Part shown: in pieces, positions 35,981 to 36,803 of the stretch
Layout of the letters: each line of letters opens with the position of its first letter
Numbering within the stretch: position 1 is the first letter of the stretch
Sequence record: HM035025
Source of the DNA: Shigella phage Shfl2
Direction: 5' to 3' (one strand)
DNA: 64,000 nucleotides
Position numbers and translations under genes: made by a program
Notes under the pieces: model-generated
The model's input: only the letters and a program-made list of their open reading frames with translations
Told to the model about the DNA's origin: nothing
Database searches by the model: none

Positions 35981-36057
35981 TGGTCGAGACAGAAGGATTC
36001 TAACCTTCAACCCACGGATTAGAAGTCCGTTGCTCTATACAATTGAGCTATGCCTCG
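35981..36057 (-). tRNA. tRNA-Arg (anticodon UCU), CCA encoded
   Basis: Manual fold: acceptor CGAGGCA/TGTCTCG, anticodon loop CTTCTAA, T-loop GGTTAGAATCC. Confidence 0.8.
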
Positions 36058-36061
36058 TATT

Positions 36062-36136
36062 TGGCGGACGTGATAGGATTCGAACCTATAACCAATCGCT
36101 TAACAGGCGATCGCTCTGCCATTGAGCTACACATCC
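36062..36136 (-). tRNA. tRNA-Asn (anticodon GUU), CCA encoded
   Basis: Manual fold: acceptor GGATGTG/CACGTCC, anticodon stem ATCGC/GCGAT, loop CTGTTAA, T-loop TTCGAAT. Confidence 0.7.
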
Positions 36137-36140
36137 AAAT

Positions 36141-36227
36141 TGGTGGGGAGTGATGGAGTCGAACCACCCGAGTCGCAATGACAATGGATTTACAGTCCAC
36201 ACCGCTACCTCTACGGGATAACTCCCC
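36141..36227 (-). tRNA. tRNA-Tyr (anticodon GUA), class II with long variable arm, CCA encoded
   Basis: Manual fold: acceptor GGGGAGT/ACTCCCC, anticodon loop CTGTAAA, long variable arm resembling bacterial tRNA-Tyr. Confidence 0.65.
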
Positions 36228-36236
36228 AAATTAATT

Positions 36237-36311
36237 TGGTGGCCCTGGGTGGAATTGAACCACCATCTGGCGATTATGAGTCGCTTGCTTGAACCTTCCA
36301 GCTACAGGGCC
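36237..36311 (-). tRNA. tRNA-Ile/Met (anticodon CAU), CCA encoded
   Basis: Manual fold: acceptor GGCCCTG/CAGGGCC, anticodon loop CTCATAA. Confidence 0.75.
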
Positions 36312-36312
36312 T

Positions 36313-36388
36313 TGGTGCTGATTGACGGAATCGAACCGCCGACGTCCTCATTACAAGTGAGGTGCTCTACCTACTGAGCTAAATCAGC
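36313..36388 (-). tRNA. tRNA-Thr (anticodon UGU), CCA encoded
   Basis: Manual fold: acceptor GCTGATT/AATCAGC, anticodon loop CTTGTAA, T-loop GGTTCGATTCC. Confidence 0.8.
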
Positions 36389-36390
36389 AA

Positions 36391-36477
36391 CGGAGGCGAT
36401 AGGATTTGAACCTATGAGTCGCCGGAGCGACTGCCGGTTTTCAAGACCGGTGCATTAAACCACTCTGCCACGCCTCC
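36391..36477 (-). tRNA. tRNA-Ser (anticodon UGA), class II, CCA not encoded
   Basis: Manual fold: acceptor GGAGGCG/CGCCTCC, anticodon loop CTTGAAA, long variable arm. Confidence 0.8.
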
Positions 36478-36479
36478 AG

Positions 36480-36553
36480 TCTCCGTGGCAGGATTTGAAC
36501 CTACGACATTCTGCTCCCAAAGCAGACGCTCTACCAAACTGAGCTACACGGAG
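36480..36553 (-). tRNA. tRNA-Pro (anticodon UGG), CCA not encoded
   Basis: Manual fold: acceptor CTCCGTG/CACGGAG, anticodon loop TTTGGGA. Confidence 0.8.
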
Positions 36554-36563
36554 TAAATTAAAT

Positions 36564-36637
36564 TGGAGCGGATAATGAGAATCGAACTCACATCATCAGA
36601 TTGGAAGTCTGAGGTAATGCCATTATACGATATCCGC
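36564..36637 (-). tRNA. tRNA-Gly (anticodon UCC), CCA encoded
   Basis: Manual fold: acceptor GCGGATA/TATCCGC, anticodon loop CTTCCAA. Confidence 0.8.
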
Positions 36638-36642
36638 AAATT

Positions 36643-36729
36643 TGGTGCGAGAAGTGGGACTCGAACCCACAAGGAAATCATTCCGCAGCATTTTAAGTGC
36701 TGTGCCTTTACCAATTTGGCCATTCTCGC
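36643..36729 (-). tRNA. tRNA-Leu (anticodon UAA), class II, CCA encoded
   Basis: Manual fold: acceptor GCGAGAA/TTCTCGC, anticodon loop CTTAAAA, long variable arm. Confidence 0.8.
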
Positions 36730-36730
36730 G

Positions 36731-36803
36731 CTGGGAATAAAGGACTCGAACCTTTGCATCCTGGAATCAAAATCCAGTGCCTTACCAACTTGGCTAATTC
36801 CCA
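36731..36803 (-). tRNA. tRNA-Gln (anticodon UUG)
   Basis: Manual fold: acceptor TGGGAAT/ATTCCCA, anticodon loop TTTTGAT; first tRNA of the transcript. Confidence 0.8.

Follow-up and report, generated by a model that had tools for sequence, protein, structure and literature searches.

The closest described systems to the transfer RNA (tRNA) cluster considered here are those of the T-even phages. In T4 (NC_000866) the order is Gln-Leu-Gly-Pro-Ser-Thr-Ile-[segB]-Arg-rnaD-rnaC. When the tRNA regions of T2L, RB1 and RB3 were sequenced, they were found to have no segB and to carry the tRNAs for Met, Tyr, Asn and Arg together with open reading frames (ORFs) (Brok-Volchanskaya et al. 2008, PMC2330249). 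The same study placed the preferred 27-base-pair (bp) SegB site within the gene for tRNA-Asn, reported that about 1250 bp with these tRNA genes are excluded in crosses of T4 with T2L, and described the tRNA region as non-essential and as a target of SegB (PMC2330249). For close homologues, the literature documents both cutting by SegB and homing at the Asn site. Here we report that a stretch of 64,000 nucleotides (nt) of Shigella phage Shfl2 (HM035025; hereafter the window) contains ten tRNA genes that very probably constitute a segB-less, T2L-type T-even tRNA operon. The explanation that we favor is meant as a whole and includes supply of tRNAs for translation, a counter-defense role for tRNA-Tyr, and exposure of the segment to SegB.

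Run on the whole 64-kb window, ARAGORN calls ten tRNA genes and no more; all are minus-strand genes lying between positions 35981 and 36803 (Table 1). Their transcript order is Gln(UUG), Leu(UAA), Gly(UCC), Pro(UGG), Ser(UGA), Thr(UGU), a gene with anticodon CAU, Tyr(GUA), Asn(GUU) and Arg(UCU). An earlier reading of the DNA, made from its letters and its ORFs (the sequence-only reading), had listed the same ten genes at the same positions, and the calls bear out every anticodon and the order. Nine of the ten match the Rfam tRNA model RF00005, whose gathering score is 29 bits, at 59.9-74.1 bits (E-values 1e-11 to 1e-15), with tRNA-Asn the highest at 74.1 bits. The array is tightly packed, with spacers of 0-10 nt. 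For tRNA-Ser, the Rfam limits (36391-36477) suit the acceptor stem better than the ARAGORN call, which adds one base on each side. The window belongs to a Tequatrovirus: identity is 97.4% between the region and Escherichia phage 310Ecol104PP, in which the same ten tRNAs are annotated, and approximately 95% between it and hundreds of further Tequatrovirus genomes carrying annotations of the same tRNAs. The cluster is placed on the early-gene strand, between the trna.2/trna.3/trna.4 ORFs and the e.8 side, and the ORFs flanking it match those annotated in 310Ecol104PP, T4 and T2. Those in and around the cluster matched only PHROG families of unknown function, and no Pfam domains were found in them.

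The T4 cluster shares the genomic position, the strand and the first six genes of the window, but segB, which codes for a GIY-YIG homing endonuclease, stands there in place of tRNA-Tyr and tRNA-Asn. The sequence-only reading had taken these two genes as extra relative to T4 and sited them between the CAU (Ile) gene and Arg; this proved correct, as T4 has neither. A blastn search with T4 segB found no copy of that gene within the 64-kb window. At the 3' end of the Asn gene we identified a candidate preferred SegB site, GGTTCGAATCCTATCACGTCCGCCAAA, which reads GGTTCRANTCC followed by CCAR and has G6, A16, G18, A26 and A27, all five of the preferred-site nucleotides (PMC2330249). The Asn gene of T2 is identical to this site-bearing gene, and six of the 11 T2L primers of the 2008 study that were tested match the window exactly (PMC2330249). 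Because tRNA-Asn carries this putative preferred site, the segment from the CAU gene to Arg (Ile2-Tyr-Asn-Arg, for reasons given below) would be lost in a mixed infection; in cells co-infected with a segB-bearing phage such as T4 or T6 it would be converted or excluded. As a separate observation, the SegB motif derived by SITE-seq, RAWTSGAAC, has 13 matches in the window, four of them within the 1.5-kb tRNA/rnaC region; these lie at plus-strand positions 35369, 36077, 36328 and 36579 and correspond to the T-arms of rnaC, Asn, Thr and Gly.

The cluster is already known, both as a published layout and as an annotation in hundreds of genomes. The novelty that had been implied for tRNA-Tyr and tRNA-Asn therefore does not stand: the arrangement has been described for T2L, RB1 and RB3 since 2008 (PMC2330249), and among 50,697 phage records the pair is found in 434 (at least 80% coverage). 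In the reference records T2 carries both genes and T6 carries Tyr. An additional tRNA-His(GUG) with a spacer lies between Asn and Arg in 333 records, and a T4-type segB is found in 126. The T2-type layout is thus commoner than T4's own, with 434 records against 126. A sequence search showed the tRNA-His insert to be absent from the window. Phage G29, one of these 333, has tRNA-His(GUG) and a 114-bp spacer between Asn and Arg (L005, where this observation and that on rnaC below concern positions 456-549 and 1162-1351).

The tRNA-Tyr gene calls for closer description. Its long variable arm, U-GUC[AUUGC]GAC-UCG, is the same as that of T5/BF23, and the class II structure assigned to it by the sequence-only reading is upheld. 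The canonical D-stem drawn by ARAGORN contains a C:C mismatch. The D-arm is instead non-canonical: a 4-nt linker follows the acceptor stem and leads into a 3-bp CCG/CGG stem that is shifted two bases 3'. We compared ten genes from six lineages, with homologues from T6, T2, G29, the rV5-like MaxBurger, the T5-like BF23 and NBSal005, a Jiaodavirus, an E. coli plasmid of 109 kb and a Felix O1-like phage. Stems were parsed by structure, and a MAFFT alignment was left out of the pair counts since it put the 5' ends of the T5-like genes off by one column. In this structure-guided comparison, whose pair table was thus made to fit the fold that we propose, each of the 23 stem pairs is of a standard type throughout the ten sequences, with compensatory double changes at 13. 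The shifted D-stem, CYG[9-10 nt]CRG, pairs at three of three positions in all ten, a U-A pair replacing C-G in the T5-like phages, whereas the canonical register has the C:C mismatch in every sequence, two of which pair only one or two of its four positions. The gene also has a G1-C72 pair, A73, the GUA anticodon and an encoded CCA. It is identical to the T2 gene at 86 of 87 positions and to the T6 gene at 85 of 87, both differences from T6 being G-C to G-U changes inside stems and the variable arm being identical; identity to E. coli tyrU is 65%.

This family of tRNA-Tyr genes with a shifted D-arm has members in T-even, T5/BF23, rV5-like, Felix O1-like and Jiaodavirus phages as well as the E. 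coli 109-kb plasmid, most of them with the same variable arm. Next to a DNA ligase gene, E. coli plasmids of approximately 109 kb have a tRNA cluster, Asn-Tyr-Thr-Ser (pEC881_2, NZ_CP019027.1, 2454-3280; L006). The plasmid tRNA-Tyr is 94% identical to that of the window, and this tRNA-Tyr is thus common to T-even phages and plasmid-borne elements.

A function for such genes has been described. Septu (PtuAB) cleaves host tRNA-Tyr in the variable arm (Chihara et al. 2026, PMC13096335). In the same work, plating was restored by over-expression of T6 tRNA-Tyr or by its SegB-driven amplification, T6 was sensitized by deletion of the tRNA region, and T4, which has no tRNA-Tyr, was the most Septu-sensitive of the T-even phages while T2 was resistant (PMC13096335). 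The tRNA-Tyr of the T5 family evades retron-Eco7 PtuAB in a dose-dependent rescue for which anticodon and stems are required (Azam et al. 2024, PMC11555353), and when 245 coliphage tRNAs were screened against PtuAB, tRNA-Tyr alone was enriched (PMC12445682). The window's gene combines the GUA anticodon and close kinship to the tested T6 gene with the variable arm of T5/BF23. By analogy with the T6 and T5 genes, its product would replenish the pool when the PtuAB of Septu or of retron-Eco7 cleaves host tRNA-Tyr. The sequence-only reading had raised tRNA-targeting host defenses as one reason for extra tRNAs, and the activity against Septu of the T6 tRNA-Tyr, with its 85 of 87 shared positions, now gives that suggestion an experimental footing (PMC13096335). 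The SegB-driven amplification of Tyr described in T6 is not evident here, as no segB lies within the 64-kb window.

Codon demand provides a second reason for carrying these tRNAs. We compared 59 non-overlapping window ORFs (15,725 codons) with 27 annotated K-12 genes (10,563 codons), and the ratios are approximate, the K-12 sample being small and containing a single very large adhesin gene. All the NNA codons that the eight tRNAs with T4 specificities read are enriched in the window: AGA 6.3-fold, GGA 2.2-fold, AUA 2.05-fold, UCA 2.0-fold, UUA 1.9-fold, ACA 1.65-fold, CAA 1.5-fold and CCA 1.4-fold. These eight would decode codons used far more by the A+T-rich phage than by its host. Among amino acids, Tyr ranks first in enrichment (1.70-fold), Lys second (1.63-fold) and Asn third (1.45-fold), with TAT at 2.2-fold and AAT at 2.1-fold, while His is under-represented (0.78-fold). 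The tRNAs for Tyr and Asn, each the sole isoacceptor for its amino acid, would top up the supply for two of the three most enriched amino acids. Supply compensation is a genuine contributor for tRNA-Tyr and tRNA-Asn, as the sequence-only reading had suggested from codon usage. It cannot be the whole story, because Lys has no phage tRNA here, tRNA-His has been added in relatives despite the low use of His, and the host has four asn genes.

At the level of alleles the cluster is less uniform than its anticodons suggest. Identity to T4 is 99-100% for Leu (86/87), Gly (73/74), Ser (89/89) and Thr (75/76). Gln and Pro are diverged alleles, matching T4 at 66/74 and 64/75 positions but G29 at 74/74 and 75/75. 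The CAU tRNA is identical to that of T2 (75/75) and only 61% identical to T4 tRNA-Ile (47/77), and tRNA-Arg matches T4 at 43/81 positions (53%), T2 at 63/79 and 310Ecol104PP at 76/77. tRNA-Asn is the same in T2, G29 and 310Ecol104PP (75/75) and shares its anticodon loop with E. coli asnT, to which identity is 62%. The description of the first seven genes and Arg as the T4 set accordingly holds for the anticodons and fails for the sequences, since the CAU and Arg genes are unrelated to their T4 counterparts and Gln and Pro have diverged. The region is a mosaic: no single reference combines every allele of the window, and this pattern fits a region that would have been reshuffled by recombination. 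The Arg allele is of the RB51/Mosigvirus type, with 183 records matching at 95% identity or more, and folds as a clean cloverleaf at minimum energy (z = -2.2). Its T-loop is UUAGAAU, with A at position 56, and its D-loop, AAUUGUAUA, is without GG; these features suggest that a U19:A56 tertiary pair may replace the usual G19:C56.

The CAU gene has been called tRNA-Met by ARAGORN, in GenBank records and in the 2008 paper (PMC2330249), a label that, for ARAGORN and the paper, came from the anticodon alone. Among E. coli tRNAs, identity is 76% to ileX, whose anticodon stem-loop is the same, and 63% to metT; the gene is not initiator-like. Its acceptor stem, GGCCC.../...GGGCC, gives C4:G69 and C5:G68. 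These two pairs are reportedly determinants for TilS, according to work by Ikeuchi and colleagues in 2005. Given its likeness to ileX and these two pairs, set against the lower identity to metT, the gene probably encodes a tRNA-Ile2 that would read AUA after a predicted lysidine modification.

Several observations weigh against our interpretation of the cluster. The best, and only, Rfam match listed for tRNA-Tyr is to the tRNA-Sec model, where its 34.4 bits fall short of the 47 that this model requires, and single-sequence folding did not recover its cloverleaf (the minimum-energy fold is not a cloverleaf; z = -0.9). T6 tRNA-Tyr is relatively unstable and is itself cleaved by Septu (PMC13096335), so any benefit of Tyr depends on dose. 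No known defense was found for which a phage tRNA-Asn is the countermeasure, and no mention of Asn was found in the PARIS paper; the four asn genes of E. coli, moreover, mean that Asn is not a rare host tRNA, and the K-12 sample behind the codon ratios is small. A promoter scan returned 12 matches against 10.7 expected from shuffled sequence and no promoter was assigned; with promoter-like matches at chance level, the start of the transcription unit is taken from T4 only. The sub-threshold match to the Sec model, the C:C mismatch in the canonical D-stem register, the minimum-energy fold and the label "tRNA-OTHER" in some GenBank records could all be expected if tRNA-Tyr were a pseudogene or a tRNA-like element without a decoding role. 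We consider this extremely improbable and rejected it on the covariation and on the published function of relatives: the cloverleaf in the shifted register keeps every pair, 13 of them through compensatory changes, the terminal pair, discriminator, anticodon and CCA are all in place, and the tRNA-Tyr genes of T6 and SP15 rescue phage, the rescue by SP15 needing the anticodon and stems. The shifted D-arm itself accounts for the low Rfam score and for the "tRNA-OTHER" calls made by some pipelines. Thermodynamic folding neither helps nor hurts the cloverleaf; BF23 tRNA-Tyr folded singly also gave none (z = -1.2), and only the BF23 centroid shows the shifted D-stem. It is also very unlikely that tRNA-Tyr and tRNA-Asn are near-neutral passengers kept by recombination or homing in a hypervariable region. 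That the region is a mosaic, that its gene content differs between phages (Thr is missing from T2, and Pro, Ser and Asn from T6, while His is added in many), and that it has been described as non-essential and as a SegB target (PMC2330249) would agree with such a history, but six phage lineages all strictly retain the Tyr cloverleaf, with compensatory changes, Asn is invariant in T2, G29 and 310Ecol104PP while its neighbors differ, and T6 tRNA-Tyr has a demonstrated function (PMC13096335).

Whether the two genes serve translation only, purely for codon demand and with no counter-defense in this phage, is a closer question. The ranks of Tyr and Asn in amino-acid enrichment and the roughly 2.1-2.2-fold excess of TAT and AAT speak for it, and the anticodon loops, which are the same as the host's, give no sign of nuclease-escape changes. 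We searched the loops of both tRNAs for such changes as a candidate mechanism and found none. Against a role in supply only stand the T6 tRNA-Tyr, 98% identical to the window's, which counters Septu, and the sensitivity of T4, the T-even phage without the gene; Lys is as enriched and yet is served by no phage tRNA of the window, tRNA-His is an addition in many relatives despite the low use of His, and four asn genes are already present in the host. On balance we think the supply-only account rather doubtful. A further extension, in which the tRNAs with GUN anticodons (Tyr and Asn here, with His in 333 relatives) would form a coordinated cassette against host-tRNA nucleases and Asn would answer an as yet unnamed defense, we judge unlikely. 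Its candidate attackers may be OLD-type or colicin E5-like anticodon nucleases targeting queuosine-family tRNAs. P2-OLD cuts tRNAs with a paired CNG motif at positions 28-30 and 40-42, and E. coli tRNA-Asn is only a minor, secondary substrate (PMC12445682). The host tRNAs for Thr(UGU), Tyr, Asn and Gln(UUG) have this paired motif and the same four tRNAs of the window are without it, while the window's Gly, Ser, Pro and Arg keep it. The absence of CNG from those four, the status of Asn as an OLD substrate and the low use of His are consistent with the cassette. We rate the OLD motif low as a lead, because OLD still restricts T6 strongly, T-even escape proceeds via the protein Gp49.2, and a change of the CNG motif alone did not protect tRNA-ThrU (PMC12445682). 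The tRNA-Asn of SP15, for its part, fails to rescue from PrrC170. Our preferred reading remains that of a segB-less T2L-type operon in which supply, the Tyr countermeasure and the SegB target each have a place.

The 3' ends of the ten tRNAs differ in how they would be completed. To establish CCA status, we located the 3' strand of the acceptor stem in each gene and read the bases after the discriminator. Three genes encode no complete CCA: Gln ends in a G discriminator and C followed by the first base of Leu, Pro in A73, C and U followed by the first base of Ser, and Ser in G73, U and U followed by the first base of Thr. The other seven of the ten encode it in full. The sequence-only reading was right that Pro and Ser lack CCA, and overlooked Gln. 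The Gln, Pro and Ser junctions of T4 are the same as those of the window, and T4 Ile additionally lacks CCA; mixed CCA encoding is the classical T4 arrangement and no new feature. Maturation of the Pro-Ser precursors of T4 requires RNase BN, for trimming at the 3' end, as well as the host CCA-adding enzyme. Extrapolating from the classical T4 work, the array would be transcribed from upstream phage promoters as a polycistronic precursor, which host RNase P and 3' nucleases would cut, and the host CCA-adding enzyme would complete Gln, Pro and Ser.

The stable-RNA unit runs on, still on the minus strand, beyond the tRNA interval delimited by the sequence-only reading, to about 35282 (Table 1). 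It includes an ORF of 116 amino acids, homologous to T2_136 and annotated in relatives, in which no Pfam match was found; T4, unlike the window, has no ORF between Arg and rnaD. A diverged rnaD-like RNA and rnaC follow. In G29, a 94-nt annotation as "tRNA-Lys(ttt)" is really the 3' part of rnaC; that part is 97.9% identical to the window at 35355-35449, where ARAGORN makes no call. The terminator-like hairpin, a strong one, probably ends the stable-RNA transcription unit, and the corresponding position of G29 bears a terminator annotation.

Table 1. Positions of the tRNA genes and other elements of the stable-RNA unit in the 64,000-nt window (coordinates are positions in the window)
Feature	Coordinates	Strand	Evidence and remarks
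tRNA-Gln(UUG)	36730..36803	-	ARAGORN; Rfam 67.4 bits; only C74 of CCA encoded, first base of Leu directly after
tRNA-Leu(UAA), class II, CCA encoded	36643..36729	-	ARAGORN; Rfam 64 bits
tRNA-Gly(UCC), CCA encoded	36564..36637	-	ARAGORN; Rfam 63.3 bits
tRNA-Pro(UGG), no full CCA	36479..36553	-	ARAGORN; Rfam 69.7 bits
tRNA-Ser(UGA), class II, no CCA	36390..36478	-	ARAGORN; Rfam 62.6 bits
tRNA-Thr(UGU), CCA encoded	36313..36388	-	ARAGORN; Rfam 73.5 bits
CAU tRNA (T2L-type "tRNA-Met" label), CCA encoded	36237..36311	-	ARAGORN; Rfam 59.9 bits
tRNA-Tyr(GUA), class II, CCA encoded	36141..36227	-	ARAGORN; Rfam only 34.4 bits, Sec model
tRNA-Asn(GUU), discriminator G, CCA encoded	36062..36136	-	ARAGORN; Rfam 74.1 bits
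Candidate preferred SegB site, 27 bp, GGTTCGAATCCTATCACGTCCGCCAAA	36060..36086	-	3' end of Asn gene; match to description in PMC2330249
tRNA-Arg(UCU), CCA encoded	35981..36057	-	ARAGORN; Rfam 68.9 bits
ORF, 116 amino acids, function unknown	35612..35962	-	phrog_3355, E = 1e-53; between tRNA-Arg and rnaD-like RNA
rnaD-like stable RNA (homologue of T4 "species 2"), diverged	35501..35612	-	blastn with T4 rnaD: 77%, 118 nt, E = 4e-17
rnaC stable RNA (T4 "species 1")	35356..35494	-	blastn with T4 rnaC: 97.8%, 139 nt
Intrinsic-terminator-like hairpin	35282..35305	-	10 pairs, 7 of them G-C, then T run

As a discovery the cluster carries little weight, its layout having been published in 2008 and the role of tRNA-Tyr having been demonstrated experimentally in T6 in 2026 (PMC13096335). 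Its value lies in annotation. The arrangement marks the phage as a segB-less T2-type T-even which, by analogy, should resist Septu-like tRNA-Tyr nucleases better than T4, and whose tRNA segment is predicted to be lost in co-infection with segB-bearing phages. The CAU gene is better labelled Ile2 than Met.

T2/T2L (EMBL AJ880101; LC348380), RB1 and RB3 resemble the window in having no segB and in the order CAU-Tyr-Asn-Arg followed by the same small ORF. T2 differs from the window in lacking Thr, in having Ser and the CAU tRNA separated by a 402-nt ORF, and in its alleles of Arg (63/79), Gln (66/74) and Pro (64/75). T6 has segB with tRNA-Tyr adjoining it and is without Asn, Pro and Ser. In the T6 record (AP018814.1; L004, 1803-2468) segB is annotated as a "serine recombinase", which looks like a mis-annotation, and the annotated tRNA-Thr of T6 is missed by ARAGORN. 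The T6 tRNA-Tyr matches that of the window at 85 of 87 positions, including the whole of the variable arm that Septu cleaves, and T6 can amplify the gene. The tRNA-Tyr of T5/BF23, which comes from a different phage family and genomic context, has the variable arm and T-arm of the window's gene unchanged, as well as its shifted D-stem architecture, but is only approximately 85% identical, its acceptor, D and anticodon stems differing by compensatory changes.

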